Source of the DNA: Synechococcus sp.
GTDB lineage: Bacteria > Cyanobacteriota > Cyanobacteriia > PCC-6307 > Cyanobiaceae
Direction: 5' to 3'
Assembly (NCBI GenBank): GCA_047285805.1
Contig: JBJBCN010000002.1
Location: forward strand, 1,088,001 to 1,152,000
Length of the DNA stretch: 64,000 bases
Shown: positions 43,004-64,000 of the stretch, one piece after another
Layout of the letters: each line of letters begins with the position of its first letter
How positions within the stretch are numbered: the first letter of the stretch is position 1
Translations under genes and position numbers: made by a program
The notes under the pieces: model-generated
What the model was told of the DNA's origin: nothing
Database searches by the model: none
What the model saw: only the letters and a program-made list of their open reading frames with translations

Positions 43004-43118
43004 GTTAGAGTTGTGGAGAAATTGATATAGTGAACGAACTGTCTTGTCTACAATGCAGAAAATATGTCGGTTCGGCCCGCTGAAAGCCCTAGAGAACGTT
43101 TTCTGCAAGCAAGACAGT

Positions 43119-44183: not shown

Positions 44184-46010
44184 ATGAGTTCAAACGATCA
44201 TATTCTTGTTGATTGCCCACCTTATGGGACTTTCAAGGTTGCCGCGACATCCGAATTCATTTGCTGGAGAGCGACATCATTTCACACAAAAGAACCGACA
44301 ACCATTCAATGGTTGCAGTCGCTAGAAAAAGATTCAGTATTGATAGATGTAGGCGCTAACATTGGCATTTATACTATTCCAGCCGCTCTCTTTCATGCAA
44401 AGAGAGTGATTGCAATTGAGCCCGAGATCAAAAGCTACCGAGAGCTGATAAGAAATGTCGAGCTTAATGGTGTCGATAAAGTCGTGGATGCGTTACCTTT
44501 GGCTGTATCAACAGAATTTGCAAATTGCGTCTCAAGCCTGTATCTGACAAGTGACGAGCCTGGTTCGAGCTGCCACCAGGTTGGCCGCAATCAGAATTAT
44601 TTGCTGAATCCTACCAATGAAGAGAGGAAAAGAAGATCTATTTATTGCATTTCACTATCTTCAATAGTCACCAAAGCTCATGATGAGAATCCAACATCTC
44701 CACTGCATATCAAGGTTGACGTGGATGGGATCGAAGAAGATGTTTGCCAGTCGCTATTTGACTCGAAGGCTTTAAACTATGTCAACACCCTTCAAGTTGA
44801 ACTGAATCCCGCAATACCCCAACACGGTAGCCTCATCAACAAGTTACAAGATCATGGATTCAGCTATTCAAAAGCACAGGTTGCTAAGGCAGCTAGAAAA
44901 AGTGGTAATTTTGAAGGTTTTGCTGAATACGTATTTCGTCGATACATCACTCGTGGACTTGCATCGAGCTTACCGGAAGATGTATCAAGTAAGTTTTATT
45001 TTGTAGATGATGAAGATGATCAGTCCGATGTTTCAGGCTTAGTGCTTGGGTCAAAGCTTAAACCTAATTCAGTCAAAAGCTTTTTTTCCAATACTTGCAA
45101 TCCTGTAGAAATATCAACAAGTCCGCCGGCTCTGGTGCTTCCTCAACTGCTAAGTGTTGGCGAATGCCTTGAAATATGCTCTTCACTCGGACAATGCATT
45201 GAAGACTCGAATGATTTTGGGTTTAGTTCCAGTTCGGGTTTTAACAAGGATGAAAATCGGCGTGCTATTTCAACCGAGAAGCTACTTCAAGTCGATATGC
45301 CATATGTGCAGCAGCTGTTTAGGCGTTTTTCCGATATTGAGATACCCAGGTCTATTATTAAGAAGAGCATGCCCATATTAAAGTCGTATTTGGGGCTTGA
45401 AGCGAAAAACCCATTTGTTCCTGGGCTGAAACTAACTGTAAGAATACGACATTTCCTAGATCTCCAAGGTTTTTATCTCACTTGCCACCATGATTCGAGG
45501 GACACTCTTTTTGCTCTGGTTTGTCCGTTGACGCCATCATCAAGTACTACTACCTTATTTAACTCAGCTCCTGAAACGAATAATCGAGCTCCATCAGACA
45601 AATCATTGCGCCTTGAGTCACAGTTTAGAGGTGGGCATTTTTATGAAACTTCAGCCAACGTAGATGGCATCTACAGGGTAGTAAATGGTGATGGTGACAA
45701 CTTGTATTGCCTTTATGCACATAGCACATATCTTCGGCATGGTGACACATTAGTTATTCCAAATTTGGGATCAGAGGCCTTTGCGAGACCTGACTGGGGA
45801 CAGAATAATCCTCTTGCGCACTTTGGTCATGGAGTTTTCCCACCAATCCCAGATTTATTAAGACCGGTACTGTTGGTAGATTATATGGTTTCCAAGCAGG
45901 AAGATACGGATGTATACTCAACACTATTTGAGACTAGAAAACAGAATTCTCTGCACGTTCATATTTGCCCGTTGGATCATTTACTTGTTGAGCACACTAA
46001 AAGTAAATAG
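44184..46010 (+). CDS. FkbM-family methyltransferase with C-terminal putative 2OG-Fe(II) oxygenase-like domain
   Basis: IDVGANIG, IAIEP, IKVDVDGIE; later HHD...HGV; AT-rich; start could be 44145 or 44160. Confidence 0.8.
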   Translation: MSSNDHILVDCPPYGTFKVAATSEFICWRATSFHTKEPTTIQWLQSLEKDSVLIDVGANIGIYTIPAALFHAKRVIAIEPEIKSYRELIRNVELNGVDKVVDALPLAVSTEFANCVSSLYLTSDEPGSSCHQVGRNQNYLLNPTNEERKRRSIYCISLSSIVTKAHDENPTSPLHIKVDVDGIEEDVCQSLFDSKALNYVNTLQVELNPAIPQHGSLINKLQDHGFSYSKAQVAKAARKSGNFEGFAEYVFRRYITRGLASSLPEDVSSKFYFVDDEDDQSDVSGLVLGSKLKPNSVKSFFSNTCNPVEISTSPPALVLPQLLSVGECLEICSSLGQCIEDSNDFGFSSSSGFNKDENRRAISTEKLLQVDMPYVQQLFRRFSDIEIPRSIIKKSMPILKSYLGLEAKNPFVPGLKLTVRIRHFLDLQGFYLTCHHDSRDTLFALVCPLTPSSSTTTLFNSAPETNNRAPSDKSLRLESQFRGGHFYETSANVDGIYRVVNGDGDNLYCLYAHSTYLRHGDTLVIPNLGSEAFARPDWGQNNPLAHFGHGVFPPIPDLLRPVLLVDYMVSKQEDTDVYSTLFETRKQNSLHVHICPLDHLLVEHTKSK

Positions 46011-46823: not shown

Positions 46824-47822
46824 ATGCAGCAGTCCCTAAGCATCTCGCTGGTGGCACTCAGCTCTTTTGCTTTCTCCATCACAACACTGGCTACCGTCAG
46901 CGCCAAACCAGATGAGGTGGCTTCCGGCCCTTATGGTGACGTTGGGTAATGAGGATCAAGCTCACGGGAATCGGCAAACTGCAGATCGCATCCAAGGTCA
47001 AACACAAGCCGCTCGCACCCTCTACCAAGCAGGTCTGGGTGGCTTCCTTTCCATGGTAGTGGGCAGCAACAGCGTCTTCTTTGCTGATGTGCGGGCGAAT
47101 GCAAACTTCGCGGACCGAGGCAGCATCAGCATCAATACCAAGGTGGCTGGTACCACCATCAGCACGTCATCCAGGCTGTGTTGCGTCTGACTGAACGTTG
47201 ACCGCAGTTGGATATTTGGCGTCAACGGTGGGTATGACACCCGACCGATGGCAGCTGGTGATGCCGCCGATACGGGCGTTGCGGTCTCTGATCAGTGGAC
47301 AGTCTTTTTCCAGCAGGCAGGGTTTGCTTGGAAGCAGTGAATGATGACTGGAACTTCAATACCTACGGGCTCATCCCAACTGGAACAACTGAATACAGGC
47401 TAAATAGTCGCTACAACGAAGGAGCAGTGGATACTTACGGGTTTAATGCAGGCTACAGCCTCACGACAAAGTGGAAGCTCAGCGTTGGCTATTACTACCA
47501 AAACCGCGACCTCAATACAGCTGATGGCTCAGGCGTGCTTGGGCGACTGACTTACAGCATCAATGAGGGTGTAACGGTTGGTGTCAATCTGTCTTATGAC
47601 AGGGCGCTTAAGTCACGCTTCTCGGCTGATATTAAGTGGCGGTTTAATACAGCAGGAATTACGCAAAGTGAAAAGCACAAGCAGGTGTGGGAGTAGCCAA
47701 CGATTAAGGCACTAACTGAGAGCGTTAAGAATAGGGATGTGCCGGTGCACGATTGCGAGGGTAATGGGGCTTGCAGGCGTAACGGGTTAAGAGGGTGCGG
47801 AGGCACTGTTTGTGGTATTTGA
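46824..47822 (+). pseudogene. Inverse-autotransporter-like barrel gene, copy 1 (degraded)
   Basis: MQQSL signal peptide, several frameshifts, TGA 47188 and TAG 47694; most similar to copy 5; tail CEGNGACRRNGLRGCGGTVCGI. Confidence 0.85.
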
Positions 47823-47887
47823 ACTGACAGCTGCTTACTGTCTGTTTTTACTGTTCAGGTTAGTAACTGACTGTGGCTAGGCACCCT

Positions 47888-47914
47888 AAACCCCTACCAG
47901 CGCAGGGGCTTTTT
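47888..47914 (+). terminator. Degenerate family terminator after copy 1
   Basis: AAACCCCT-ACCAGCGC-AGGGGCTTTTT. Confidence 0.65.
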
Positions 47915-48136
47915 ATTGCTTCAATTACGCCAACAAGCCAACAAATCAGCACCCAGTGTCTAAAGAGGTTGTACTCTTCAATGAGGGCAAGTTTGGGTTT
48001 TGATCAGCGATACCAGCTGCTGGTGACTGCGAACAAACCTCCTGCGCTGAGGACTGTCGTAGTCCCCTTCAATAACCTCCAGAGTCGACGTGCCACCCAG
48101 CAGCCAGTCGCTCATCGGCCTCATCAAGCCCCATGG

Positions 48137-48301
48137 TCATGCCGCTTTCCTCAGAAAACGCTTGTCCTGATCGAGCTGCATCACCCGGAGTGCTTCGTAG
48201 TCTTCCGTGCACTTCTGGCAGCTACAGGGGACGCCATGCAGATCCCAGCGGTCTAAAAGGAAACCAGTCAGCTCAACTTGGTCTTTGTGGAACTTGGGCA
48301 A
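48137..48301 (-). CDS. Possible small Cys-motif protein
   Basis: Hand-translated TTG ORF containing HGVPCSCQKC. Confidence 0.3.
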   Translation of the reverse strand: MPKFHKDQVELTGFLLDRWDLHGVPCSCQKCTEDYEALRVMQLDQDKRFLRKAA

Positions 48302-48766
48302 AGCTAGAAGCCGAAGGCCGGCTGCCCACTCTCAAGGAAACCAATGACGAATGGTTGCCGATTTCGTGGATGTCAGTGGGATCACATCGTTTTCGGTAGC
48401 CGTTGCTCCGCAATAACTACTTTTCTTTGTGGGCCTTCATCAGCGAGTACAAGCGGTCCCTCAATCGCTTTTCGAATCATCTGGACTCAGCAGCAGCTCC
48501 TCCAAGAGCCGCTCCATTAGGTCTCCTCGAATGCGCAGACGCAGTTTTCGCTTGGGCTGATCCACAGCGGCCAAGACCTCGGTGCTCAGCTCTAGGTAGA
48601 TCCGTTCTCTCTCGGCCAAGTGCCTGGTCAGTTCATCGTTGCCCCATCAGGAATCGTCTAGGAAGTCTCGTCTCCCTTCATCCTGCCGCCGCCCAGCCAA
48701 CTGCTCTAAGCCCAGTGGCAATGCAGGTTGTTTTGGCAAAGCTCCGAGCAGTTGAGCGTGTCTGTG

Positions 48767-49753
48767 ATGCAGCAGTCCATTCGCCTGAGCCTCTCTCTCA
48801 CGGGTGCTGCAGCGCTGGCACTGGCATCAATGGCGCAGGTCAGCGCCAAGCCCGTTCAAGTCGCACAAGGCACAGCCAGTGACCTGGGTGTGATGAGCAT
48901 CAACCTCAAGGACATCGTCCAACCGCAGGTCGGCATCCAAGGTCAAACCCAAGCCGCTGGCACTCCCAACCAAGCAGGTCTGGGTGGATTCCTTCCACTA
49001 GTGGTCGGCAGCAACAGCGTCTTCTATGGCGACGTTCTGGCGAATGCCAACTTCGCAGACATCAACAACTCCTCCAGCATCATCAACACCACCGTTGCTG
49101 GCACCACCATCTCCACCTCATCCCGCCTGGGCTATCGCTGGCTCAATGGCGACCGCAGTTGGATGGTTGGCCTGAATGCGGGCTATGACACCCGACCAAT
49201 GAGCACGGGTGATGCCGATACAGGCATTCCTGTCTATGCCTCACGCACGGCTTTCTTCCAGCAGGCTGCTGTCAATGCAGAAGCGGTAAGCGATAAGTGG
49301 GCATTCAATGCCTATGCGCTTATCCCAACGGGTGACACCAAGCAGGTCCTCAACACCGTCTATCAAGGCGGCGCACTGGACACCTACGGCTTGGATGCGG
49401 GTTACAGCCTGACGCCAGCCCTAAGAGCATCTGTTGGTTACTACTACCAAAACGGCGATGCAGGAGAAGCAGATGGCTCTGGTGTCTTGGGTCGCCTCGC
49501 TTATGCCATCAATAACGAACTAACTATTGGCACCAACCTCTCTTATGACAGTGCCTTCAAGTCACGCTTCTCCGCTGATATCAAGTGGCGCTTCCAGACC
49601 AATGGCGGTCCTGGCAAAGAAACACCGAAAAACAATGCTGCCATTGAAGCCCTAATATCAACGCCAAGTAATCGGGATGTGCGGGTGCATGACGACTCCA
49701 GAAAGACACGAGTCACAATGGTCGATGGCTCGGTCAAGTTTGTAAACGACTGA
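48767..49753 (+). CDS. Inverse-autotransporter-like beta-barrel protein, copy 2 (intact)
   Basis: Signal peptide, LGYRWL...WMVGLNAGYD invasin-like strands, NRDVRVHD then tail DSRKTRVTMVDGSVKFVND. Confidence 0.85.
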   Translation: MQQSIRLSLSLTGAAALALASMAQVSAKPVQVAQGTASDLGVMSINLKDIVQPQVGIQGQTQAAGTPNQAGLGGFLPLVVGSNSVFYGDVLANANFADINNSSSIINTTVAGTTISTSSRLGYRWLNGDRSWMVGLNAGYDTRPMSTGDADTGIPVYASRTAFFQQAAVNAEAVSDKWAFNAYALIPTGDTKQVLNTVYQGGALDTYGLDAGYSLTPALRASVGYYYQNGDAGEADGSGVLGRLAYAINNELTIGTNLSYDSAFKSRFSADIKWRFQTNGGPGKETPKNNAAIEALISTPSNRDVRVHDDSRKTRVTMVDGSVKFVND

Positions 49754-51143
49754 ATTATTTTACCAATCCCATTAGGTCCTTGGGTGGGGAGATTTCCCAG
49801 AGACTTAAGTGAGGGGAATCACTCCTTGATAGCCTGCAACAAATTGCGAAACATATAAGTCTTCAGTGCGAGATCGCGAAAACCAAGAAATCAACATCCA
49901 ATATCTGGCATCATTGCCATCAACCTAGCTTGACGACAGACCCATCAAGGCACTGAATAGAAGTCACCTCAGAATATGAATTCGACTGTGGGCAGTTTTC
50001 AATACGTTGAAGAAAACCGTCAACATATCGATATTCACTCACACCTTTTCCTATGCCGTCACGGTTAGCCGGCACGAAGAAGAACGTTTTTGATGGTTGG
50101 GAGTTCCATCAAACTCCATTGAATCCAGTCGCAGAAAGCGTTCTCAAGGAATTGGTAGACAGGGTTGTGAAATAGGTAGGCAAACACGTGCACTCAGTGC
50201 GGAATAAGGCCGCTCCGGCACCGAACAACACTTGAGCGCCCGGTGATATGGATTGGACCCACTGCTGGTATGCACACCTAAACCGGTGCCTCATCTCGTC
50301 CTGCAGTGGTCCTCAGATCCACAGAAAAAGTTCATTTGGTTACAAACGGCACATCACCGCCAAAGCGGCTGCTGGATCATTTGCTTGTGACCTCCGGGTC
50401 GGGCAAGGGAGATAGCTGAGGCGGGCTGGAACCGCCTTTTTCATGTCCGCCGGACCGCTGCTGGGTTGCATCAGCAGACGCTGCTGCCATTCCTGCTCCA
50501 GCTGGTCCAGGCGGGTGCTCACGGCTGGGTTCACTGAGGGGCGCCCAGTGATCGGCTAAACCTGGCAACAGATGTGACGTGAGTGGCTGCAAATGCCAGC
50601 AAACGGAAACCCGGCATGGGGGTATCTGGAGCCCTTCTGACTCAATGAAGTGGGCTCAGAAATTTGCGGTTGGAACTTGTCGCATGTGTGGGAAAAAACC
50701 ACAGCTGATCGAGGCTTCAGTCAAGAGGGGATGTATCGAGGACGGGTACTTCAAAGGACATCCAAACGCCAGTCAGTCCACGCCGAAATTCATTCACGTT
50801 GGGAGCGGCTATGCGGGTTTACGTCTGGCGAGTCCTGAGTTGGCTGTGAATGCTGAGGAGGCTTCGTACAACTTGCACCCTTGGCGCTTCTCTTGCGGTT
50901 GGTTGGTTTCCCGAGCAAGGTTGGACTTTTGTCCATGCTCGACGTGTTGTCAGCGGAGCTTTGTTCTGGGTTCATGAGCCGTCCCAGTGACGTACCAACG
51001 CTGGCAATAGCTCTAGTGGTGTCGCCAGCTCATGCCAGCAAACGGACACCGTGTATGGGTTAACTGGAATCCTTGTGAGTACGTGAAGTGGCTTCAGAAA
51101 TTTGAGGCAGGAATCGGCTTAAACAAGAAACCGCCCAGATGAA

Positions 51144-51268
51144 TGGCGTTTCACCAACCGGCAGCCAATCAGCTCAGGGGCAACGACCTCCGCTGGACGG
51201 CACAAGAAGGCGTGGGGCAGGGCGGGGAAAGCTTGGGTGATGGGCTGGGTGGCTATGGGAGTGGCTTC
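51144..51268 (-). pseudogene. 5' fragment of a 3-methyladenine DNA glycosylase (Mpg-like) gene
   Basis: Minus strand reads [28 protein letters not shown]. Confidence 0.65.
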
Positions 51269-51368
51269 TTTATCTGTCTTCATCGTGCCGCCGCCAAGCC
51301 AACTGCTCTAAGCCCAGTGGCAATGCAGGTTGTTTTGGCAAAGCTCCCAGCAGTTGAGCGTGTCTGTG

Positions 51369-52333
51369 ATGCAGCAGTCCATTCGCCTGAGCCTCTCTCT
51401 CACGGGTGCTGCACCGCTGGCACTGGCATCATGGCGCAGGTCAGCGCCAAGCCCGTTCAAGTCGCACAAGGCACAGCCAGTGACCTGGGTGTGATGAGCA
51501 TTCAGCTCAAGGACATCGTCAAACCTCAGGTCGGCATCCAAGGTCAAACTCAAGCCGCTGGCACCCCTAACCAAGCAGGTCTGGGTGGCTTCCTTCCACT
51601 TGTGGTCGGCAGCAACAGCGTCTCCTTTGCTGATGTCCTGGCGAATGCCAACTTCGCTGACATCAATAACTCCAGCATCATCATCAACACCACCGTTGCT
51701 GGCACCACCATCTCCACCTCATCTCGCCTGGGCTAGCGCTGGCTCAATGGCGACCGCAGTTGGATGTATGGACTGAATGCGGGCTACGACACCCGACCAA
51801 TGAGCACGGATCCTGCAGACACAGGTATCCCTGTCTATGCCTCACGCACCGCCTTCTTCCAGCAGGCTGCCGTCAATGCAGAAGCGGTGAGCGATAAGTG
51901 GAACTTCAATGCCTATGCGCTCATTCCAACGGGTGACACTGAGCAACAGCTCAACACCGTCTATGAAGGCGGTGCACTAGACACCTTCGGTTTGGATGCC
52001 GGTTACAACCTCACCAAAGCTTTAAGAGCATCTGTTGGTTACTAATACCAAAACGGCGATGCAGGCGATGCCGATGGCTCTGGCGTCTTGGGACGCCTCG
52101 CCTATGCCATCAACAATGGACTCACTGTTGTCACTAATCTTTCCTACGACAGTGCCTTCAAGTCACGCCTCTCCGCTGACATCAAGTGGCGCTTCAATAC
52201 CAATGGCGGTCCTGGTAAAGAAACACCGAAAACCAATTCCGCCATTGAAGCCCTAATATCAACGCCAAGCAATAGGGATGTGCGGGTACACGATTGTTCC
52301 CTGGAGGTTCTTGCGCAATTGGGGCAGTGTTAG
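51369..52333 (+). pseudogene. Inverse-autotransporter-like barrel gene, copy 3
   Basis: 1-bp deletion near 51430 relative to copy 2, TAG 51734 and TAA 52043; tail CSLEVLAQLGQC. Confidence 0.88.
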
Positions 52334-52380
52334 GGGGGGGGAATCTCCTAATCAGTGGAGAATTGGGAGCCTAATCACCC

Positions 52381-52412
52381 AAAGCCCCTGCAACCGCAGG
52401 GGCTTTTTATTT
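52381..52412 (+). terminator. Family terminator after copy 3
   Basis: AAAGCCCCTGC-AACC-GCAGGGGCTTT followed by a T-rich run. Confidence 0.85.
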
Positions 52413-52890
52413 CTTCAGTCACACCAATAAGGCAATAAACCAGCCTCCAATGCCTGGCACCATCGCCATCAACGCAACCTGACGGCAGACCCAACGAGGC
52501 ACTGAATAGAAGTCAACTCAGGAAAACACATCAGCTGTAGGCAATCTTCTATAAGTTAAAGTTAAACCGTCAACAGGTCGACATTCACTAAGGCCTTTTT
52601 TCTATACCGTCACGCTTGTTCGGGACAGAGGGGGACTTTTTCTATGCATGGGAGTTCTAAGGAAACTCCATTTAATCGAGTCGTGCCACGCGCTCTCAAG
52701 GAATCAGTAGACAGGTTTGCCACAAGAGGTAGACAACCAAGTCCACTCAGCGAGGCAGAAGGCAACGTGCAGCGAGCTGCAGCGGCAACAACTAGCAAAG
52801 GAAGGTTGTATGTCGATTGCAGATTCGTTGGAAGCAGCGCGGAAGACGGCCAGTGCCATCAAATTGAAAGGCACGACTACCAGCGGCAGG

Positions 52891-53048
52891 TCTGCTCAAG
52901 GTCGGCTGAATGCCCGTAGAGGCACTTTGAGGAGCCGATCAGGAGGTGTAGCTGTCTGCTCAGCATTCAGGCGTAGAAGCCCCTAGGGGGGGGGGGGAGC
53001 TGGGTCCATGCGCCTACGTAATACGGCTTCAGAAAATTGGGCCAGGAA
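52891..53048 (+). repeat. Degraded duplicate of the DUF1651-like gene 3' end and its downstream motif
   Basis: Aligns to 58041-58197; two TGG to TGA changes. Confidence 0.8.
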
Positions 53049-53087
53049 ACCATCTGAAGCCGAGGCCCTTCCAATTCACATCAATGG

Positions 53088-53258
53088 TCAAGAGTCAGCG
53101 AACACGTCATAGATCGGTCGAATAGAGCGACTAACCTTTTCTGAGCGCTCTTGAGCTATTTCAAGCCTCCGCTTAGTCGTTGCAAGCTCAACTTCTATCG
53201 CCAATTGTTCAAGCTGAGCACTTAGAAGCTTTTGGGTTCGCGCTGAAACATTTGCCAT
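53088..53258 (-). CDS. Small coiled-coil protein (56 aa)
   Basis: Hand-translated MANVSARTQKLLSAQLEQLAIEVELATTKRRLEIAQERS... Confidence 0.5.
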   Translation of the reverse strand: MANVSARTQKLLSAQLEQLAIEVELATTKRRLEIAQERSEKVSRSIRPIYDVFADS

Positions 53259-53438
53259 GGTTATCGGTTAATTTGCTGAAAGCTATAAATTGAATTCGGC
53301 AATCGCGTAAAGACTTTACGTATCTACACCTATGCATGTAGTTAAGTGAAGCATTTGCTTGGCTGGGCCTCATTGGCGGGGTGTTCGGTTTGCCGCTTCT
53401 GGCTGCAGGCAGCCCCTTGCACGCTTGCAGCGAACTAA

Positions 53439-53845
53439 GCCATAACCACTGAGGACACGGTTCCCCGCAGACCCTTTGATCCGAGAAGGGGGAGCGGCTA
53501 CCTCCCCGACCTCAACACTCCCCGTCACTAAGCAGTAGCTCGGGGAGCTGTTTGGCGAGCAAGCAAAAAGCCGGTCACCAATCGGCTCCTTTCTCTCCCC
53601 GTGCACTGCACGGCACTCCTTGGTTTTGGCTCATCTGGATACAAAGCGCCAGTAGCGTGTCTGCAGTCGCAGTAGAGCTTCTTTACGAGCCCTCGCACTA
53701 CCCACATGGGTTTTGCCATAACCGATCTGAGGAAAGCTGATTGGCGAGTCCCAGCGATCCGACGGGGAGCCAACTCCCTCCCCGATTTCTCCCTGAGCCC
53801 GCCCAATACCCCTCCGACGCCTTCGTTTTGAAGTCGGAGGTTTTT
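53439..53845 (+). ncRNA. Candidate structured ncRNA region with a tandem motif
   Basis: Two related units (53439-53510, 53715-53785), several hairpins and a terminal terminator; no convincing ORF. Confidence 0.5.
53811..53845 (+). terminator. Rho-independent terminator
   Basis: CCTCCGAC...GTCGGAGG followed by TTTTT. Confidence 0.75.
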
Positions 53846-54205
53846 GCCTTATGGCTAGGCTTGACGGGTCGGCGTCAGCAAGTGCAAGTGGCACCTAGGC
53901 AGCTTTAACTGAAGGAGGCCTCAGTCGCCTGAGCTGCAGACGGTTTCCACCAGTCCAACACTGGTCTCGAAGCTCTTAGACCAGCACGTCGCTTATGCAG
54001 TCGCTGTAAGCGCAAACCTCTGTGGCTAGTCATCACATGGAGGTTTTTTCTTGGCTGGTCGCTGAAGGGTTGCTTACGGCTAGATGCTGGAGAGCCTCAG
54101 GCCCAGTCCTTAGTCCCACACACAACGCTCAATGGGTGACCAAAGACACGTCACCGCTGAAGGCCTGGCCGCACTATTTCACCAAGACCTTCGAATGGGT
54201 TTCAA

Positions 54206-54249
54206 GGGACAAAAAAGCGGCGGTGTGAAACCCGCCGCTTTTTTGTCCC
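54206..54249. terminator. Perfect 18-bp inverted repeat, likely bidirectional terminator
   Basis: GGGACAAAAAAGCGGCGG-TGTGAAAC-CCGCCGCTTTTTTGTCCC. Confidence 0.75.
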
Positions 54250-55089
54250 GATGGCCACTGCCGGGTTGCATCAGCAAACGCTGCTGCCATTCCGTCTCCA
54301 GCTGGTCACAGTGGGCGAGGACGGCTGGGTTAAAGAGGTGGTCGCGGAGGCTGAGTGTGAAATTCCTATGGAAAATCGTTGTTGGTGCACTCTGGGTGGG
54401 TATTTGTCCATTACTGAGGCCCCATAACGCATGAAGCGACTTACTTAAGCCATAGGCATTAGGGAAATGGTCGTCACTTGACTGGATAGATGGGGTTGGG
54501 GTGTCTTTCCGCTCACCCCACCTCAACGTTCCCCACCGCGAGCGGTGGTCTAGGAAGGTTGTGGCACTAACGATCTTCTTATTCCCATAGCGCAAGCCAA
54601 TGGGTGGTGCAGTGATCACACATAGACAATTCTTGTGCTTGTCAAGCCTGTATTTGGGATAGGCCTCCACAAGAGAGCTGAGTCTTCATTGATTCGACGA
54701 GTCCTAAGGCTCATCTCTATTCACGAAGCATGCATATAGAACTAATTCCATGCCCAAGACACTCTTTCATTGGAGAGGATGTTACAAGATCGACAAATCC
54801 ATTACATCAACAATACAGAAGACAAGGAGTGGCCCGCAACCCCAAGCTGTGAACTCGTAGATTGAGCCATCCGGCAAGTTCTTATTTATGCATAGGAGAG
54901 TCTTAGGCGGATTCTTTAGCACCCAACCGAAACCGCATTTTTGTATCCGAAAGCACCAAAGCCATGAAAACAACAATTAATAAGCGGCTCGGACAAGGGT
55001 TTGCTGACACAACCAACGAACGGTACCGTTTGATACTCGTTGTGTATTAGCTAATTCGCGAGAATTTTGATATGTATTCAGCTGTGTAG

Positions 55090-55506
55090 ATGCTTGCTCG
55101 CAGACCTATCGAGATCGTTCATCAGACTCCTCTACAGTCAGGTGTAGGGTTCTTTGGCGATCCACTTCCCAGTGACGAAACGCTAATTGCGGAGATTCCA
55201 CCTTGTGTGAGTCCTCAATTGTTTTGTCATCGCAATCAAACTGATCAACTGATGGTCCTGCGCGGAAGCATCGATCTAATAGTTCTGCAGAACCGGGCTT
55301 TGAAGCGGATAGCCCTTAGGGAAGATGAGGCCTTCTGGGTACGTATTCCAGCAGGTGTCCCACATGGCGCTATCAACCGAAGCCATGGCTCAGCCGTGCT
55401 GGTCAATGCAGTGTTGCGCCATGGTCCAAGCGATCTTCGTGATTATCGCCCTCGGCCTGTTCCCAACGCCCTACTGCCAGAATGGAATGATCTAATCAAC
55501 AACTAA
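55090..55506 (+). CDS. RmlC-like cupin protein
   Basis: FCHRNQTD and IPAGVPHGAIN cupin motifs. Confidence 0.78.
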   Translation: MLARRPIEIVHQTPLQSGVGFFGDPLPSDETLIAEIPPCVSPQLFCHRNQTDQLMVLRGSIDLIVLQNRALKRIALREDEAFWVRIPAGVPHGAINRSHGSAVLVNAVLRHGPSDLRDYRPRPVPNALLPEWNDLINN

Positions 55507-56130
55507 GTCATTATGAGAGCTCTATGCAGTTTCCAGAAAAAAGCTTTCACCAAAGTCATTGATAAAAAGATCAGATAATTGGATATGCATCTTTTGGTGC
55601 CATGATTAATTCAGATTGTGCGTATCTGGCAGCCCTAGATCCTCTAGGCGATAGTCCCGCAACCACGGCGGGAATTGAAAACAGCAGAGATTAACCACAT
55701 ATTTGATTCCGCGCAATCAATCAACAAGATCCGACCTTAAGTCTGGTTGACAATCTTCTTAATCTGGCTTCTGAACCCTGAAGCCAGTAAGAGCTGTACG
55801 AGTCTGCAAGGTGACTTGTTGGCATCGGGTCTGTTTCCCTTCAACCATTGCTTTAGTACGAAGAAGCATTTGACTTGTGGTCGCGCCCTGGGCTTCCATT
55901 GCAGCTGCGACAAGAAGCCAGTTTATTATTCGGTAGTTGATGAAGCTGTAGTTCGGTGGACTGAACCAACAACCAATGCGACCCCAGTGGACCTATCGCG
56001 CTGGAGGTTTCCGAACCATAAAGTCTCGCGAAAGGCTGAGGCAAGTGCTTTCCAGGCAATAGTTGCAATCGACACGTCAAAGGAAGAGCACCACTTGTCA
56101 TAATTGTCTCCAGCACGTGGTCCTGGGCCG

Positions 56131-56319
56131 ATGAGCGACGAGGTCGTAGCGAGTTTTCACTACAACTTGACGGCATTGAGGTTGGAGTACAAAACCACTT
56201 CTGATGCTCTTCAGAAGTGGTCAGGTGGTCCGGCAGAAGAGCAGGACTTTTTGGTCTACAAGAAACAAGAACTCTTCAGGGCCATGGTTGAGCAAAGCTA
56301 TCACTCGGATGCAGACTGA
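56131..56319 (+). CDS. Small hypothetical protein
   Basis: KWSGGPAEEQ pattern resembling small picocyanobacterial/cyanophage proteins. Confidence 0.6.
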   Translation: MSDEVVASFHYNLTALRLEYKTTSDALQKWSGGPAEEQDFLVYKKQELFRAMVEQSYHSDAD

Positions 56320-56936
56320 CACTAATTGACCACGAACGATCAGGTATTCGTCATCCATCAAGTTTTGAAGGCTTGAGCGACTCCGATACCCCAGCTGTCT
56401 TAATTCCGCTGCAATGCTTTTAATGGCCACTACTAACCCGATATCAGCGCCTAAACCAGCCAAAGGAATTTTGAGCTGACGCTAGACAAACCGAGCGCCT
56501 CTGGAGACCCACAGACGCTATTAAACGAAGGACCCTCAAGGCGCAAAACCATCTTGAAGCAACTAGAAGTGTGGGGGGGATCAATGATCTTTGCTCCACA
56601 GTTGCGAAGCCGCAAATCGCCAGGCGATGAAAGTACTTAGGGACGCGCCAAAGGCAAGAAGAGCTAACAAGAGCTGAGAGGTGGTCATAGAAGCACCCTG
56701 AATTGAATTTATTTATAAAGCCTTCATGGTGACTGGCGCCGTTGATACAAGATCAGGCGTATCAATCAATACGTCTTTTGGTGAGCCTAAATTACTTAAC
56801 TCACTTACCAATGAATGGTAGATCTGCGATTTTCATCAGAGTCCAGTTGACCTGCGGGACCACGACAAAAGAGGTGACTCAAGGTCAGAGTGTCCACCAC
56901 TCAAGACCTCGTTGTAAACTGATTCGATCCAGCCAC

Positions 56937-57173
56937 TCAAGAATCTGCTGCCTTTTGTCTCCAATGGGTTCCATGATTTCGCAAGGCTTCAGCTTCCATC
57001 TCCCTTCGAATCTGCACTACTGCTTCGCGCACGAAGGCTTTTTCGTGCTCCTGTGCGGCAATGATTTGCTTGGTTAGTGCACGTAAGGCATCAATATCTT
57101 CGCAGGCATCGATTTCTCGAAAGGCGGCCTCAAGGTGGAATTTTTGCTCCAGTGAGAGTCGGTGGTTAGCCAT
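56937..57173 (-). CDS. Small helical protein, possibly NblA-like
   Basis: MANHRLSLEQKF start resembles NblA LSLEQQF. Confidence 0.6.
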   Translation of the reverse strand: MANHRLSLEQKFHLEAAFREIDACEDIDALRALTKQIIAAQEHEKAFVREAVVQIRREMEAEALRNHGTHWRQKAADS

Positions 57174-57227
57174 GGTGGTACGAAAAGAGGCCCCACTCAT
57201 GTGAGGCCAGATAAGTCAGTTGAGTGC

Positions 57228-57395
57228 TTAGCGGACTTCCGAGATTGTTTGAGGTGCAGCCGGGAAGCTTGTTGGCATTGGGTCCGGCAGTCCTTCGGCA
57301 AGAGCCTTCGCGCGGACATACATCTGACTATTAATGGCACCCTGAGCTTCCATTGCCTCGGCGACAACAGCCCAGTTGCGGATCTCGGTAGTCAT
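57228..57395 (-). CDS. Small conserved hypothetical protein
   Basis: NWAVVAEAMEAQG...YVRAKALAEG.PDP. Confidence 0.65.
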   Translation of the reverse strand: MTTEIRNWAVVAEAMEAQGAINSQMYVRAKALAEGLPDPMPTSFPAAPQTISEVR

Positions 57396-57852
57396 TGGAA
57401 GAAATGACGATTGAACCTGCAAACTTTCGCCACCTCAGCCGCGAGACGGTGAGGATGAAAACCGATCACCTACCGAACATCGATTCCACTTCTTTCGCTG
57501 GTAGGCATTTGCGGATCAAGTCAAACAAAAAGGCGACTGCAAGGCCACCTGATGCACTAAAAACCCAGTCCCAGTCAAGAAAGTCATGCGATCGCGTCCT
57601 GCATCGCAGCGAAGCTTTCAGGGTGTCTGACGGCGATATGGATCGACTGCAGCGCTCGGATGCCAGTCGTGGACTCAATTCGTCCATGTGATCGCCAGCC
57701 CCAGTTGTGACAAGCGTTCTTGTTGAAGCTTGGGTAAGGCGCTGTTTAGTCCCGCTATCAGGGTTTTGAACCCCCTATGAATAAGAAACTCTGAGGCTCC
57801 CGCCACAACCGGCTCAACCGGCTAGCCTGGTACAGGCGTACTAAGGCATGGG

Positions 57853-58101
57853 ATGTCAATAGGGGGGTTCATCCAGGATCCAGCTAGCAAGCAGGCCAAG
57901 CGCTTCCACCGCGATGAGAAGAGTTGGTCACAAGACCCCATGGTCTTTGTGGACACAGGCGTTCCGATTCCGGGCGAGCCTCCGCTCCTGAAGACTCGAG
58001 TGCACTTACATCGCAACGTTGCGGTGACCCTCTGGAACGATCTACTCAAGGTCGGCTGGAAGCCCGTAGAGGCGCTTTGGGGAGCCGATCAGGAGGTGTA
58101 G
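57853..58101 (+). CDS. DUF1651-like protein
   Basis: RFHRD...VFVDTG...PPLLKTR...LW..L...GW. Confidence 0.72.
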   Translation: MSIGGFIQDPASKQAKRFHRDEKSWSQDPMVFVDTGVPIPGEPPLLKTRVHLHRNVAVTLWNDLLKVGWKPVEALWGADQEV

Positions 58102-58418
58102 CCGTCTGCTCAGCATTCAGGCGTAAACACCCCCCCCATGGGGGGCTCGTACGTCCATGCGCCTACATAATTCGGCTTCAGAAATTTGGGCCAGGAACCT
58201 CGATAAAGCCAAGCAAGACCAGTGCAGCGGCCTGGTAGTGCGGGTGCTTTGGGAGCAACCGCAACTACAAGCGAGAAGCTAGTCATTCACTAGATCCAGC
58301 AAGTCTTAACCGGCTGTATTAGCGACAAACTAGCGACAACGCTCCTGCACTCACTCGATTTATCCGTGCGGACGAGCTGCAATCACGGCAACATCACTGC
58401 AACCACGTACCAGCGCTG

Positions 58419-59369
58419 ATGCTGCGGACCTTGTCGATTGGGTTAATGGCATCTGCATTCGCAGTCGCCACTCTCCCTGCACAAGCTGATGGGCATGGCA
58501 GCGCCAGTGACCTAGGCGTGATGAGCATTCAGCTCAAGGACATCGTCAAACCTCAAGTCGGCATCCATGCGCAAACCCAAGCCGCTGGCACCCCCAACCA
58601 AGCCGGTCTGGGTGGCTTCCTTCCACTGGTGGTCGGCAGCAACAGCATCTTCTTTGCTGATGTCTTGGCGAATGCCAACTTGTCGGACTGGGGTAACAGC
58701 AGCAGCATCATCAACACCACCGTTGCTGGCACCACCATCTCCACCTCATCTCGCCTGGGCTAGCGCTGGCTCAATGGCGACCGCAGTTGGATGTATGGAC
58801 TGAATGCGGGCTACGACACCCGACCAATGAGCACGGGTCCTGCAGACACAGGTATCCCTGTCTATGCCTCACGCACCGCCTTCTTCCAGCAGGCTGCCGT
58901 CAATGCAGAAGCGGTGAGCGATAAGTGGAACTTCAATGCCTATGCGCTCATTCCAACGGGTGACACTGAGCAACAGCTCAACACCGTCTATGAAGGCGGT
59001 GCACTAGACACCTTCGGTTTGGATGCCGGTTACAACCTCACCAAAGCTTTAAGAGCATCTGTTGGTTACTAATACCAAAACGGCGATGCAGGCGATGCCG
59101 ATGGCTCTGGCGTCTTGGGACGCCTCGCCTATGCCATCAACAATGGACTCACTGTTGTCACTAATCTTTCCTACGACAGTGCCTTCAAGTCACGCCTCTC
59201 CGCTGACATCAAGTGGCGCTTCAATACCAATGGCGGTCCTGGTAAAGAAACACCGAAAACCAATCCCGCCATTGAAGCCCTAATATCAACGCCAAGCAAT
59301 AGGGATGTGCGGGTGCACGATTATTGTTATCTACCCCGTCGGGGTGCGTGCCGATTGGGGATGGATTAG
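58419..59369 (+). pseudogene. Inverse-autotransporter-like barrel gene, copy 4
   Basis: Different signal peptide (MLRTLSIG...), single frame with TAG 58761 and TAA 59070; tail YCYLPRRGACRLGMD. Confidence 0.88.
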
Positions 59370-59421
59370 TATTTTTGTGCGATACATATTGTGTTTAGGG
59401 GTATTATTACCCTAGGCGCCC

Positions 59422-59453
59422 AAAGCCCCTGCAGTTGCAGGAGCTTTTTATTT
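59422..59453 (+). terminator. Family terminator after copy 4
   Basis: AAAGCCCCTGCAGTTGCAGGAGCTTTTT. Confidence 0.75.
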
Positions 59454-59592
59454 CTTCAGTTACACCAATAAGCCAATAAACCAGCCTCCAAAACCTGGCA
59501 CCATCACCATCAACGCAACCTGACGACAGCCCCATCAAGGCACTGAATAGAAGTTGCCTCAGGATAAAAAGTCAGCTGTGGGTAGTCGTTAC

Positions 59593-59663
59593 ACGTTGAA
59601 GAGGAACTCCATAGGTTCTAGTCATAGCAATAGATCTGAGCGGAAAAGCAGCAGTAGACTTTT
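59593..59663 (+). repeat. 71-bp island repeat, copy 2
   Basis: Aligns without gaps to 42933-43003. Confidence 0.85.
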
Positions 59664-59764
59664 AGTAGACTTATTTGGCACCCGAGTCGGCTTGCCTACT
59701 GTCTAGCAATACATAAGCACTACGCGGTTGACGTTCTGGATGAGGTCGAAGGTGAGCAATACAG

Positions 59765-60079
59765 TTGGATGCGACGTTTCCTACCGCTGCGATTGGCGTG
59801 ATTGTAACGCCGCTGAGTGCAGCAGAACACCACGAGACGAAGCCGGCACAGGTCGTTGATGAAAGTGATACGAACCTTCCCGTGAGTCGTGGAAGGGTTG
59901 ACACCGGTTCTACAGAGCAGATTTACCTGATGCTCAAGGACGGTGGTTCCTTCTCAGCACCCATTCCAATGACGAACCGGTTCACTTGTGAACTAGAGGG
60001 TAAGAAGTTGGTTGAGACGCCCATCAAGGGCGTAGTCGGTCGCTGGAAGGAGTTCTGGTGTGTCGCTGGGATGAAGTGA
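59765..60079 (+). CDS. Small secreted two-Cys protein, paralog B (signal peptide possibly frameshifted)
   Basis: SRGRVD...EQIYLMLKDG...FWCVAGMK shared with paralog A. Confidence 0.65.
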   Translation: MDATFPTAAIGVIVTPLSAAEHHETKPAQVVDESDTNLPVSRGRVDTGSTEQIYLMLKDGGSFSAPIPMTNRFTCELEGKKLVETPIKGVVGRWKEFWCVAGMK

Positions 60080-60247
60080 AGCGACTGACCTGGGGCGAAC
60101 GTACTAAAAAAACAAAACAGCCTTCTCGGGCTACTTAATGGATTCGAGAGAAGAAATACTTCACCATCACTTTGATTAAGCAATATCGTTTAAGAACTGG
60201 AACACAGATATGGATTTCAGCATAAGGAGAAGAAGAAGACCTGGCAG

Positions 60248-61951
60248 TCACCCTTCAATGAGTGACCGGAATTCAGTATCCACAAGCTTTTGATGCACAC
60301 ATTGCGCAATTCGGCTCGTGAGAGGGTAGCCAGGATGAGAATCTACATGGACACCATTCCACATCCATCTTGGAGCTGCTTTGTCAATACCTGTAACCTC
60401 CTGTATATCAGGCAAGCATGAATGACTTGGTATTCCAGCGTGACGGAATAAGCCGTCAGCATATTCAAATACTTTGCTTTGACTCTGTAGACCATTCCAA
60501 GGAGTGAAAAACACATAAATGGGAGCTTGAGCTTCTTCAACCAAGGCTTTCACAGCTTGAACATTCAACGCATGCCGATTTGGATCCAGACTCATATCAT
60601 TATCGACAAATCCGAGGAGAATCAAATCGACGGAGTGCTTTGAGCCTTTTACCTGAAGAAAGTCAACCTGATCTCTAGTACTCCAACCGCCCTGCCCCCA
60701 ATAAAAGACTAAACAGCCAGGAACCAACTTCTGAAACTGAGCCGGCCAGCGCTCATCGCTTCCTGGGGAATTACCCCAACCCCATACAAACGAGTCACCT
60801 AGAACAGCAATTTTACACTTAGCTTGAAGATCGTAATCAGCTACTGGTCGGTCGATAAAGCCATATTCATTAACACTGCCAAGGCGTTTCCACAAGTTCA
60901 CTCGATTAATAAATTCACTCTTTATCGGCAAGTACGAAGGACTTCTTGATGCAGACTCATCAAGCAAACTGGTTGTTGAAAGCAGCAGGTCAAGAACAAC
61001 TAACGAAAAAGCTGTCATACAAGAGAAGACAAGTAGATTCACCCCCAATAGCTTGCTTGCCTTATCAAGGTTAATGGCAGTCCTGGCCTTACCTAAACCA
61101 CAGAGAAGCGGCAAGATCTCCGAAAAAAGAATCCATAACAGGAGGCAAAGAATTGCCCCTCTTAAATAAAGAGGGATATCAAAAGTCGAAAGATACACGA
61201 GAACGCCATCCGACTCTTCTACATAGAAATAAATAGGAGAAAGCCAGGGAATATACTCAGCAACAATCGTCTGAAGCTTGCCTACAAACAGAGCATCCAA
61301 ATGCCGACGAGACAAGAAGACTGAGGGGGCTTTTATCCATGGAACAAATAGGCCTCTGTGATACAAAGAAGTATCTTGCAAGAAACCACCCTTGCACCCG
61401 GCATCCAAAATACTATCAGGATGCAAAACAACAAATCCCAGAGGGGAGCGATCAGTCCATCCGGAGTAAAATGAGAGCGGTTTTTTTTTGGAATATTCAA
61501 CTGCCAAATCATCGGCCCTAGTTAAGCCATGGTCAAATAAGTCACCCAAGAAGCTTCTCTTGGGAATCAAGTAATTCCCTTTAGTTTCCAAGGGGACACC
61601 CTGAAAAGACTGGAGCTTCTGCTCGAGCCAATAAAAAGCTGGAGAGTGCCAAAGCACTTCTGAGCGTGGCTTACGAAAAGCCTGAGTTACATCAAGATTT
61701 CCAGAAGCAAGTGGTCCAGAATGAAAGTAAGTGTCTAGGTTTTTCTTTGGCTTATAACCTTCGTAGGGCGGCACAGAATAAAATCTTGTGGGCCTGACTT
61801 CAAATCGGAAGTAATCACTACTATCGATGCATTCCGAATTCCCCGATCCCATCAAGAACTTTGACGGCAGGCCTGGAGCAAATACAGCTGCTCCGAGTAG
61901 CGGCAAAAAAAGCCATTTAGCACCAAGCGGACATAAAGATCGAAGCTTCAC
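60248..61951 (-). CDS. Membrane protein with C-terminal SGNH/GDSL hydrolase-like domain
   Basis: TM helices, VLGDSFVWG, GFVDND and DSHP; AT-rich. Confidence 0.75.
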   Translation of the reverse strand: MKLRSLCPLGAKWLFLPLLGAAVFAPGLPSKFLMGSGNSECIDSSDYFRFEVRPTRFYSVPPYEGYKPKKNLDTYFHSGPLASGNLDVTQAFRKPRSEVLWHSPAFYWLEQKLQSFQGVPLETKGNYLIPKRSFLGDLFDHGLTRADDLAVEYSKKKPLSFYSGWTDRSPLGFVVLHPDSILDAGCKGGFLQDTSLYHRGLFVPWIKAPSVFLSRRHLDALFVGKLQTIVAEYIPWLSPIYFYVEESDGVLVYLSTFDIPLYLRGAILCLLLWILFSEILPLLCGLGKARTAINLDKASKLLGVNLLVFSCMTAFSLVVLDLLLSTTSLLDESASRSPSYLPIKSEFINRVNLWKRLGSVNEYGFIDRPVADYDLQAKCKIAVLGDSFVWGWGNSPGSDERWPAQFQKLVPGCLVFYWGQGGWSTRDQVDFLQVKGSKHSVDLILLGFVDNDMSLDPNRHALNVQAVKALVEEAQAPIYVFFTPWNGLQSQSKVFEYADGLFRHAGIPSHSCLPDIQEVTGIDKAAPRWMWNGVHVDSHPGYPLTSRIAQCVHQKLVDTEFRSLIEG

Positions 61952-62173
61952 GGCCTAAGCGCTCTTCTGCGTAGTGTATTATACACACAAGGAGAGTTGA
62001 AGGTGAAGTATCCTCTGGCATGCGACCATAAAAACTTCCTGTAAGTATCTATATTTACTTATACAGAAAGAAGCCTATATGAATGCATCCAGCTCGCGAA
62101 AGCCCCACCAGTCATAGCGAAAACAATGTCTTCGACTAGAACAGAAAACCCCATGGCATGACTGGATGCTTAT

Positions 62174-62244
62174 ACGTTGAAGAGAAACTCCATAGGGTCG
62201 AGTAATAGCAAAGGATCTCAGCCGAAAAGCGGCAGTAGACTTTT
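62174..62244 (+). repeat. 71-bp island repeat, copy 3
   Basis: Aligns to copies 1 and 2; followed by inverted repeat GTAGACAA-N6-TTGTCTAC at 62260-62281. Confidence 0.85.
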
Positions 62245-62510
62245 CAAGCCGTCAAGCCAGTAGACAAAGCATCTTGTCTACCCTGATTCAGCTCACACTC
62301 ACCACTGTCTAGACTTCCGCAGGGCTGCACTAATCCAGAGCACAGGGGACGCCGACAATCTTCCAGTTCATTGGAATCGGTGACGCAGCAGGAATCGTCT
62401 AGGGAGTCTCGTCTGCCTTCATCGTGCCGACGACCAGCCAACTGCTCTAAGCCCAGTGGCAATGGCGGATTTCCTGGCGAAACTCCCAACAGAAGTTGAG
62501 CGCGAGCGCT

Positions 62511-63542
62511 ATGCAGCAGTCCATTCGCCTGAGCCTCTCCCTCACTGGTGCAGCTGCTTTGGCACTGGCATCAATGCCGCAGGTGAGCGCAAAGCCTGCA
62601 GTGGTGGCGCAAGGGAGCGCGGAAGACCTTGGAGTGATGAGCATCCGCCTCAAGGATGTGGTGAAACCGCAGGTTGGTGTTCAAGGTCAAACCCAAGCGG
62701 CTGGCACCCCGAATGAGGCAGGCATTGGCGGTTTTATGCCGCTGGTGGTGGGAGAGAACAGCGTCTTCTTTGCTGATGTGCTGGCGAATGCGAACTTCGC
62801 GGACTGGGGCAACAGCAGCAGCATCATCAATACCAAGGTGGCGGGTCCCACCATCAGCACGTCATCCAGGCTTGGGTATCGCTGGCTGAATGGTGACCGC
62901 AGTTGGATGTTTGGTGTCAACGGTGGGTATGACACCCGACCGATGGCAACGGGTGATGCCGATACAGGTGTTGCGGTCTCTGGCCAGCGGACAGTCTTTT
63001 TCCAGCAGGCAGCGTTTGGCTTGGAGGCAGTGAATGATGACTGGAGCTTCAATGCCTATGGATTAATACCAACTGGAACAACGGAATACAGGTTGAATAG
63101 TGCTTACAACGGGGGAGCACTGGATACGTATGGGTTTGATGCGGGCTACAGCATCACGCCAGAGTGGAAGCTGAGTGTTGGCTATTACTACCAGAATGGC
63201 GACCTCAATACAGCTGATGGCTCAGGCGTGCTGGGGCGACTGGCTTACAGCATCAATGAGGGAGTAACGGTTGGCACCAATCTGTCTTATGACAGCGCGT
63301 TTAAGTCACGCTTCTCAGCTGACATTAAGTGGCGGTTCAATACGGCAGGAATTTCGCAAAGCGAGAAGCAGAAGAAAGCGTGGGAGAAGCCAACGATTAA
63401 GGCATTAACTGAGAGCGTGAAGAATAGGGATGTACGGGTGCACGATACGACCTGGTGTAATACCCCAGGCGGGGAACCGGGAATATTAGTAACTACCCCT
63501 GGAGACGGGAAGTCTGTGTGTGTCACGCCCGCCCCAATGTAG
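62511..63542 (+). CDS. Inverse-autotransporter-like beta-barrel protein, copy 5 (intact)
   Basis: Signal peptide, barrel strands, NRDVRVHD then tail TTWCNTPGGEPGILVTTPGDGKSVCVTPAPM. Confidence 0.87.
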   Translation: MQQSIRLSLSLTGAAALALASMPQVSAKPAVVAQGSAEDLGVMSIRLKDVVKPQVGVQGQTQAAGTPNEAGIGGFMPLVVGENSVFFADVLANANFADWGNSSSIINTKVAGPTISTSSRLGYRWLNGDRSWMFGVNGGYDTRPMATGDADTGVAVSGQRTVFFQQAAFGLEAVNDDWSFNAYGLIPTGTTEYRLNSAYNGGALDTYGFDAGYSITPEWKLSVGYYYQNGDLNTADGSGVLGRLAYSINEGVTVGTNLSYDSAFKSRFSADIKWRFNTAGISQSEKQKKAWEKPTIKALTESVKNRDVRVHDTTWCNTPGGEPGILVTTPGDGKSVCVTPAPM

Positions 63543-63566: not shown

Positions 63567-63598
63567 AAAGCCCCTGTAACCGCAGGGGCTTTTTATTT
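63567..63598 (+). terminator. Family terminator after copy 5
   Basis: AAAGCCCCTG-TAACCG-CAGGGGCTTT followed by a T-rich run. Confidence 0.85.
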
Positions 63599-63858
63599 CT
63601 TCAGTCACACCAACAAGCCAACAAATCAGCCTCCAATGCCTGGCACCATTGCCCTCGACTTAGCCCAATGGCAGGTCGCTCACGGCATTCTTTGCCTCAT
63701 CGCAAGACCGCAAGACACACCAAAGCCTCCCTCAATATCTTTCTCTCTACTTCTATCCTTATTTCCTCAACGCATTCACCAATCACTTCGCTCTCTATAG
63801 CCATCACGGATGCCATTGGCGCGTCTAAATCTCACCGCCACTTGATACCAAGCCGCCT

Positions 63859-64000
63859 GGGGGCAACGACCTCCGCTGGACGGCAGAAGAAGGCGTGGGG
63901 CAGGGCTGGGAAATCTCTGGTGATGGGCTGGGTGGCTATGGGAGTGGCTTCTGGTCTCCCTTCATCGTGCCGACGACCAGCCAACTGCTCTAAGCCCAGT
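63859..64000 (+). repeat. Mpg-like fragment (minus strand) plus conserved barrel-gene leader; probable sixth copy beyond the window
   Basis: Matches 51177-51318; ends in GCCAACTGCTCTAAGCCCAGT. Confidence 0.85.

Follow-up and report, generated by a model that had tools for sequence, protein, structure and literature searches.

Intimin and invasin (structures 4E1S and 4E1T) typify the inverse autotransporters of type Ve, in which an N-terminal barrel of 12 strands is followed by a helix turn, a linker that occupies the pore and a C-terminal cargo; according to the part of PMC3008723 consulted here, the cargo of known members contains disulfides. The same part of that paper describes the cyanobacterial members as barrel-only proteins (cluster E) of unknown function, perhaps with non-covalent passengers, while the consulted portion of PMC4943183 treats barrel-only and short-extension forms together with ZirT-type substrates, and that of PMC4365693 counts five Prochlorales and nine strains of Synechococcus as carriers of the domain. 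We have analysed a stretch of 64,000 nucleotides from Synechococcus sp. (assembly GCA_047285805.1, contig JBJBCN010000002.1, positions 1,088,001 to 1,152,000; hereafter the window), in which five paralogous barrel genes, w1 to w5, were found on the + strand at 46824-63542, as the original prediction from the DNA letters had stated. They share with the inverse autotransporters the order of barrel, helix turn, pore linker and C-terminal cargo, and differ from intimin and invasin in that no LysM, Big or lectin domain was found, in that the cargo in the window is a tail of 12-31 amino acids, and in that the genome holds 11 paralogs. In our reading the intact genes probably constitute a minimal type Ve display of disulfide peptides that are shuffled by recombination and kept under diversifying selection. 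The published barrel-only proteins, which likewise come from marine Synechococcus and Prochlorococcus and have a barrel with no recognised passenger, are very probably this family or close kin, a judgement made with their accessions not matched to our sequences. The portions of those papers that were covered, which take in the supplements of PMC3008723 and PMC4943183 in part (the remainder may list these proteins), contain no variable tails, cysteine parity, tail exchange or barrel-less minigenes, and a wider search, with subscription papers mostly outside its scope, found no paper on any of the four; what was on record was a barrel-only family, and it is these four features that appear to be new.

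Copies w2 (48767..49753) and w5 (62511..63542) are intact, each with a signal peptide (a basic-hydrophobic-Ala N-terminus, judged by eye only), barrel, helix turn, linker and tail. An AlphaFold model of w5, with a mean predicted local distance difference test (pLDDT) of 69, is built of 12 long strands, a pair of short helices and one final strand, and in a Foldseek search invasin 4e1t and intimin 4e1s head the ranking, with 5g26 also among the best matches and porins next. Aligned with VIA-align, the model gives Z 24.4 against 4e1t (root-mean-square deviation 2.6, 227 residues aligned) and Z 23.8 against 4e1s, with model residues 57-318 lying on intimin 210-449; unrelated barrels reach Z 18.8 at most and their alignments end near residue 283. 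A second model, of a relative in locus L065, has a pLDDT of 84 (92-96 in the linker region) and again finds intimin and invasin first (Z 21.8, deviation 2.9, residues 38-318 on intimin 208-449). Sequence identity to the intimin and invasin beta-domains is 11-15%, and F281, the candidate aromatic end of the last barrel strand, is invariant in 106 aligned rows. In intimin, as given in the consulted part of PMC13078405, residues 412-430 form the helix turn, 434-444 the linker and 446-449 the extracellular exit strand. The w5 linker ends in NRDVRVHD (63423..63446, +), and the first residue past it, 318, falls by structural alignment on intimin 449, in the exit strand. Because the match runs through the helix turn and linker to that point, the tail is predicted to start at the extracellular mouth, where the original prediction had placed it from the position of the passenger exit, with the linker predicted to occupy the pore; this topology was read from the aligned ranges of predicted models, not from inspected coordinates. 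Both models, of w5 and of the relative, support an intimin/invasin-type barrel, with the tail predicted outside. The proposed check with Pfam IAT_beta (PF11924) came out negative: at the curated cut-off neither w2 nor w5 is matched, and among 106 aligned homologs six have weak matches (best E 0.014), while homolog P0150 and all three of the long relatives scanned pass the cut-off and an Atlas search shows the domain on 43% of members in one of the four clusters it displays. A search of solved structures by sequence with the family profile returned two chance matches (best E 0.65). The w2 and w5 proteins are of the type Ve fold and kin, outside IAT_beta at its cut-off, and are neither intimins nor invasins.

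The five window tails begin at 47754, 49694, 52295, 59322 and 63447 and contain 4, 0, 2, 2 and 2 cysteines, exactly as predicted, and the cores of both intact copies lack cysteine, as had been claimed; the w2 tail (49694-49750, +) has 19 residues and that of w5 (63447..63539, +) has 31. A larger set of tails, of the kind that the original prediction had proposed to collect for entropy, length and parity, was drawn from 205 of 272 proteins and from 149 DNA loci (67 proteins, mostly fragments, had no detectable linker and were dropped, as were 36 of 64 pattern loci with no barrel confirmed ahead of the motif; two of the DNA tails belong to minigenes). It holds 305 unique tails in 287 clusters at 50% identity, ranging from 3 to 145 amino acids (median 29; 190 of the 287 clusters at most 40), so that some of them are small domains. 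Across 118 homologs the last linker Asp, present in 115 of them, has a column entropy of 0.21 bits, and the residue after it, which is unconstrained, one of 3.86 bits; three linker columns were fixed by the search pattern, this Asp not being one of them. Cysteine accounts for 5.9% of tail residues and 0.03% of those in 146 mature cores, and its count is even in 234 of 244 cysteine-bearing tail clusters against a chance expectation of 41% (p about 1e-75, clusters treated as independent). Read in frame, 122 unique DNA tails give an even count in 99/103 cases; the two shifted frames give 12/49 and 9/48, the stretch after the stop 6/35 and the reverse strand 28/67. All six tails of broken genes in the set carry two cysteines. 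Since the even bias is present in frame and absent in the controls, the tails are under selection and are not products of read-through.

These figures bear on the idea that the genes are decayed long autotransporters, their tails being truncation stumps or random read-through. Many of the copies are pseudogenes, tail lengths resemble those of random open stretches, and relatives with passengers do exist: six picocyanobacterial open frames of 804-1398 amino acids (L031-L036) have the same barrel, and in the three that were scanned the aligned linker Arg leads on to a beta-helix passenger. These came from a genome search and not from the word-index search, in which the lack of any longer homolog among 7998 candidates is weak evidence. 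Set against decay are the cysteine bias with its four negative controls, the mutual unrelatedness of the tails, a stop followed by a conserved terminator, and the finding of no passenger domain at cut-off in any of 78 long-tailed homologs (nor of a Big or lectin domain in 106 + 78 homologs), and we consider it hardly credible; the tails are neither truncations of one passenger nor read-through, either of which would have refuted the original prediction. The cysteines might instead bind metal, or the tail might gate a solute pore, to which the close cysteine pairs of some tails, the histidine content (2.0% in tails, 0.6% in cores) and the rank of porins in the structural search would lend themselves. 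Strict even parity with loops of 0 to 86 residues fits disulfides and not a metal site, the models place the linker so as to fill the pore, and transporter genes are not conserved beside the copies, which makes this alternative very unlikely. Even counts point to passage through an oxidising compartment, whereas the outside location of the tail follows only from the structural match to the models. The genome contains a gene for a VKOR-family disulfide catalyst, the usual type in cyanobacteria.

A third alternative is that barrel and linker serve as an export leader and that the tail is cut at or after VHD to leave a free disulfide peptide, comparable to the core of a ribosomally synthesized and post-translationally modified peptide and acting as signal, antimicrobial or deterrent. 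The sharp passage from conserved to random sequence at the Asp would suit a cleavage site, the minigenes described below are laid out as leader plus core, and hypervariable multi-copy peptides are known from the same organisms, namely the prochlorosins ProcA/SyncA, which in the consulted part of PMC10783134 have a conserved N-terminal part, a hypervariable cysteine-containing C-terminal peptide, many copies, and a diversity linked to indels and recombination. In the present family, however, a membrane barrel preceded by a signal peptide makes up the conserved part, and the even cysteine counts suggest disulfides and not lanthionines; no Nif11-type leader was matched on the barrels or on 60 minigene proteins, and LanM DUF4135 was not found in the genome, in a search that gave no signal in control genomes either. 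The boundary is also the structural pore exit, which explains its conservation with no need of a protease site, the residue after the Asp is unconstrained, tails of 3-5 amino acids exist, and the copies are followed by no conserved peptidase or other partner gene. Release of the peptide is on balance unlikely.

Returning to display, we find that cores and tails are decoupled. Copies w3 (51369..52333, +) and w4 (58419..59369, +) have in common a core segment of 609 nucleotides (51679..52287 and 58706-59314, respectively) with two internal mismatches and the same two nonsense codons, TAG 51734 and TAA 52043 in w3 and TAG 58761 and TAA 59070 in w4; this shared dead core leads into unrelated tails, one of 12 residues (52295-52330) and one of 15 (59322-59366), each with two cysteines. 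The segment may be read as a recombination tract, and the 5' parts of the two genes differ in origin, that of w3 (in which the frame also shifts within the signal-peptide part) being nearest to w2 and that of w4 identical over about 300 nucleotides to x10, one of the six copies outside the window (x6 to x11). Copies w5 and x9 are 99.5% identical in the core and 99.7% over 347 nucleotides of 3' flank, with different tails between. Among 127 loci, in comparisons whose pairs are not independent, unrelated tails were seen in 8 of the 17 pairs whose core identity reaches 98% or more (one of an initial 18, the L065 barrel against its own minigene, was dropped as an overlap artefact) and in 17 of 17 pairs at 95-98%. 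Where tails are still related, all four changed codons between w5 and x7 and both of those between L123 and L128 are non-synonymous, with 0-1 changes in the core, and small indels occur as well. These comparisons indicate that tails change faster than cores.

The original prediction had all similarity ending after the linker, which describes the tails correctly and fails beyond them, where likeness returns in a common terminator and 3' stretch. These follow 10 of the 11 copies, w2 keeping the further stretch only. On the + strand of the window, terminator-like hairpins lie 3' of w1 (47891..47920, with a T-run, where the 3' element common to the copies begins), w3 (52381..52420) and w4 (59423..59455), and the terminator hairpin and conserved flank of w5 occupy 63567..63920. 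With the core on one side and the terminator and 3' stretch on the other both conserved, each tail is flanked by two homology arms. In pilS/pilE, vls and the CdiA-CT orphans, too, a variable segment lies between conserved flanks and the variable parts survive whole in broken or partial copies; here, unlike in those systems, seven copies are intact and no single expression site is evident. A diversity-generating retroelement was considered when all five bases that differ between the tails of w5 and x7 proved to involve A, and was rejected as unlikely because no RVT_1 was found in the genome (the same search was positive in 3 of 14 controls), tail length varies and a T/G change occurs. Self-searches for tail templates with 3 of the 11 tails returned self-matches only.

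In the mechanism that we favour, the signal peptide would take the protein to the periplasm, where the tail cysteines would pair into disulfides; the 12-strand barrel would then insert in the outer membrane with the helix turn capping its periplasmic side, and the linker ending in NRDVRVHD would thread the pore, so that the tail, a micro-passenger, would project from the cell. The gene family would act as a peptide library in which a conserved core and 3' flank allow tails to be exchanged by homologous recombination within the genome, and probably between cells, while point and indel mutation under diversifying selection alter them further; broken copies with intact tails could join this traffic. 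The selective agent would most likely be surface recognition by phages, grazers or neighbouring cells, the three unranked. The variable-tail display idea of the original prediction is supported to this extent: models give a barrel, they put the tail outside, and the tails look like selected sequence. One displayed peptide per gene, as it had proposed, is retained for w2 and w5 and falls for w1, w3 and w4, which are pseudogenes. A laboratory counterpart exists in the engineered intimin display Neae, in which, according to the consulted part of PMC3781032, binders that contain disulfides and can be swapped for one another are presented at the cell surface by an intimin beta-domain; Neae retains LysM and D0 and has antibody domains as its cargo, whereas the present system would be natural and smaller.

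Several observations weigh against this interpretation. The whole topology rests on predicted models, in which the w5 tail has a pLDDT of 53-66, and an even cysteine count is equally expected of a periplasmic or a released peptide. No cysteine at all is present in 43 of the 287 tail clusters, w2 included, and 10 clusters are odd. The variable regions of w5 and x9 retain a weak patch of similarity (score 31, against 159-179 for homologous tails), and the pair could possibly represent an old divergence with homogenised flanks; the non-synonymous count (6/6) comes from two independent pairs. Finally, the profile matches only 66 of 301 family genomes, fragments and long relatives counted, and with 4 of the 11 copies in our genome broken this implies that the genes are dispensable.

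If display is the function, a large misannotated family of abundant marine phototrophs acquires a role that can be tested, and the puzzle of the barrel-only inverse autotransporters would be answered by micro-passengers under selection in place of empty barrels. The tails would then offer a concrete, fast-changing surface trait for experiments on phage and grazer interactions, and display work would gain from the family a minimal natural scaffold and natural disulfide peptides by the hundred. The family is large, with at least 2270 clusters at 90% identity among 8000 scored candidates and 714 representatives at 50% identity. Its database name, "carbamoyl-phosphate synthase L chain", is wrong, a point that bears on metabolic annotation: the suspicion of a misleading label on a membrane barrel was confirmed, no Pfam or NCBIfam match to a carbamoyl-phosphate synthase (CPSase) or ATP-grasp domain being found in w2, w5 or their homologs. 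A few gammaproteobacterial records hold copies as well (L059, L072, L083, L106 and L107); in these, named Haliea, Halioglobus and a gammaproteobacterial bin, four of five tails have an even cysteine count and one has none, and L107 consists only of the 3' end of a barrel gene and its tail.

Genes for barrel-less proteins of 60-130 amino acids, which we call minigenes, were also encountered. In their products a signal peptide leads through a brief conserved stretch to the helix and linker known from the barrel proteins, and a variable tail closes the chain. The minigene profile recognises 319 proteins among 366 candidates; an Atlas search with one such protein gave a best score of 0.77 and no family. 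Minigenes are present in 3 of 301 family genomes, where each of the five copies immediately follows a barrel gene on its 3' side (minigene loci from barrel-anchored scans may overlap this genome-search set and were not added), and none was found in the Synechococcus sp. source genome. In a quick tree, the two minigene-linked barrels that it contains grouped together on a long branch. Of 98 unique minigene tails, 76 lack cysteine and 20 of the other 22 have an even number. Because six of 119 minigene tails match two of 327 barrel tails at 58-89% identity, we conclude that tails move between barrel genes and minigenes. The peptides of minigenes may dock in trans in a barrel, or they may be tail donors only; protein P0309, a minigene product with two tandem linkers, is likely a product of recombination.

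The minigenes also recall ZirT/ZirS/ZirU, where, in the consulted part of PMC4943183, downstream barrel-less genes resemble the C-terminal part of the barrel gene. A translocator or anchor of that kind, with the barrel secreting or docking separate proteins and its own tail as a plug or docking tag, has been proposed for barrel-only members (PMC3008723 and PMC4943183, as far as covered), and the position of all five genome-search minigenes next to a barrel gene, with the same helix and linker, would suit it. The Zir substrates, however, are Ig-fold proteins, whereas the minigene products are short and keep the pore linker; their rarity among family genomes and absence from the source genome, the fact that the commonest secreted gene downstream of a barrel is another barrel paralog (99 loci with enough flank), and the want of any reason for a plug or tag to come in hundreds of unrelated even-cysteine sequences make it quite unlikely. 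Within the display interpretation, a further proposal, possible but doubtful, is that display is reloadable: helix and NRDVRVHD would be a portable threading signal, each barrel would show its own tail, minigenes in some lineages would be cartridges docking in trans, and tails, arising by recombination between copies of every kind (intact, broken or minigene) and from captured pieces of unrelated genes, would owe their selection to a role as disulfide-looped ligands or decoys directed at phages, grazers or rival cells. If true, the oceans would hold, in this family, a library of constrained peptides numbering in the thousands.

The tails themselves offer some further observations. One subfamily (L180-L192, L038, L042 and L045) keeps to one tail scaffold, in which a variable loop, found in many different versions, runs from the first Cys to His-Cys and Gly-Trp stands at the end, and genome G032 has 11 linker matches. 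In a scan for tail scraps among 62 + 63 hand-picked proteins, with families guessed beforehand, the C-terminal stretch of w2 (49670-49750) matched an H-X9-DG C-terminus (E 0.0013) and other tails (L135:1131-1316, P0348, P0331, P0381 and P0392) gave Hcp (E 0.0014) and DnaK (E 0.04), with DUF1559 and caspase matches at E 0.05-0.24, all below cut-off; a tail guessed to be pilin-like gave no corresponding match in the scan. Capture of tails from foreign gene fragments is possible on these similarities. The Gly/Ala-rich tail of P0099 has no NCBIfam match and looks, we presume, bacteriocin-like. In P0170, a protein of 1010 amino acids, a Baseplate_J domain precedes the barrel and a short two-cysteine tail follows, a candidate fusion or artefact.

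The 11 genome copies lie at five sites, and seven are intact. Copy w1 (46824..47822, +) is a pseudogene in three reading frames with in-frame stops, a linker ending in NRDVPVHD and a tail of 22 residues (47754-47819). The upstream conserved element of x6, a sixth tandem copy, occupies 63950..64000 (+), and the start of that gene is 54 bases beyond the window end. In sequencing run X2 the depth over the TAG region of w4 is ~1330 (remaining after the paralog contig), compared with 630-700 in single-copy DNA, which is weakly consistent with two real copies; the read data are contigs that break at repeats and could not reveal shuffling. The other copies stand in varied company. Copy x10 (L204:7775-8728) lies beside genes for a capsid/prohead protease, an AAA_25 ATPase and a recombinase (L204:4655-12234), surroundings that look like a phage-satellite-type element and are a possible vehicle for spread; 50,697 phage records gave no match, and of 51 pattern stretches in viral contigs none was confirmed. 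A second island (L203:2886-16764) holds x7 and x8 in tandem with an epimerase, PqqD, a sulfotransferase and an AAA_25 ATPase, and x11 (L205:7354-8412), beside glycosyltransferase and pyruvyltransferase genes, is broken, its tail frame passing through the terminator hairpin.

The window copies belong to an island of 42-55% guanine plus cytosine, compared with about 64% before it, among genes for an FkbM methyltransferase, an SGNH-family protein, a cupin and small proteins of no known family. Neither an immunity gene nor a toxin domain turned up, another difference from the cassette and orphan toxin systems, and of ten small window genes examined as conserved partners, seven occur in 0-1 barrel loci and none is recurrent. 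The FkbM methyltransferase (44121-46010) has a long C-terminal half lacking assignment; the cupin gene is at 55090-55506 and that of the SGNH/GDSL-family protein at 60248-61951. Two small paralogous proteins of no known family (43044-43433, which has a signal-like segment, and 59765-60079) are 76% identical, and the pair is also present in one related locus.

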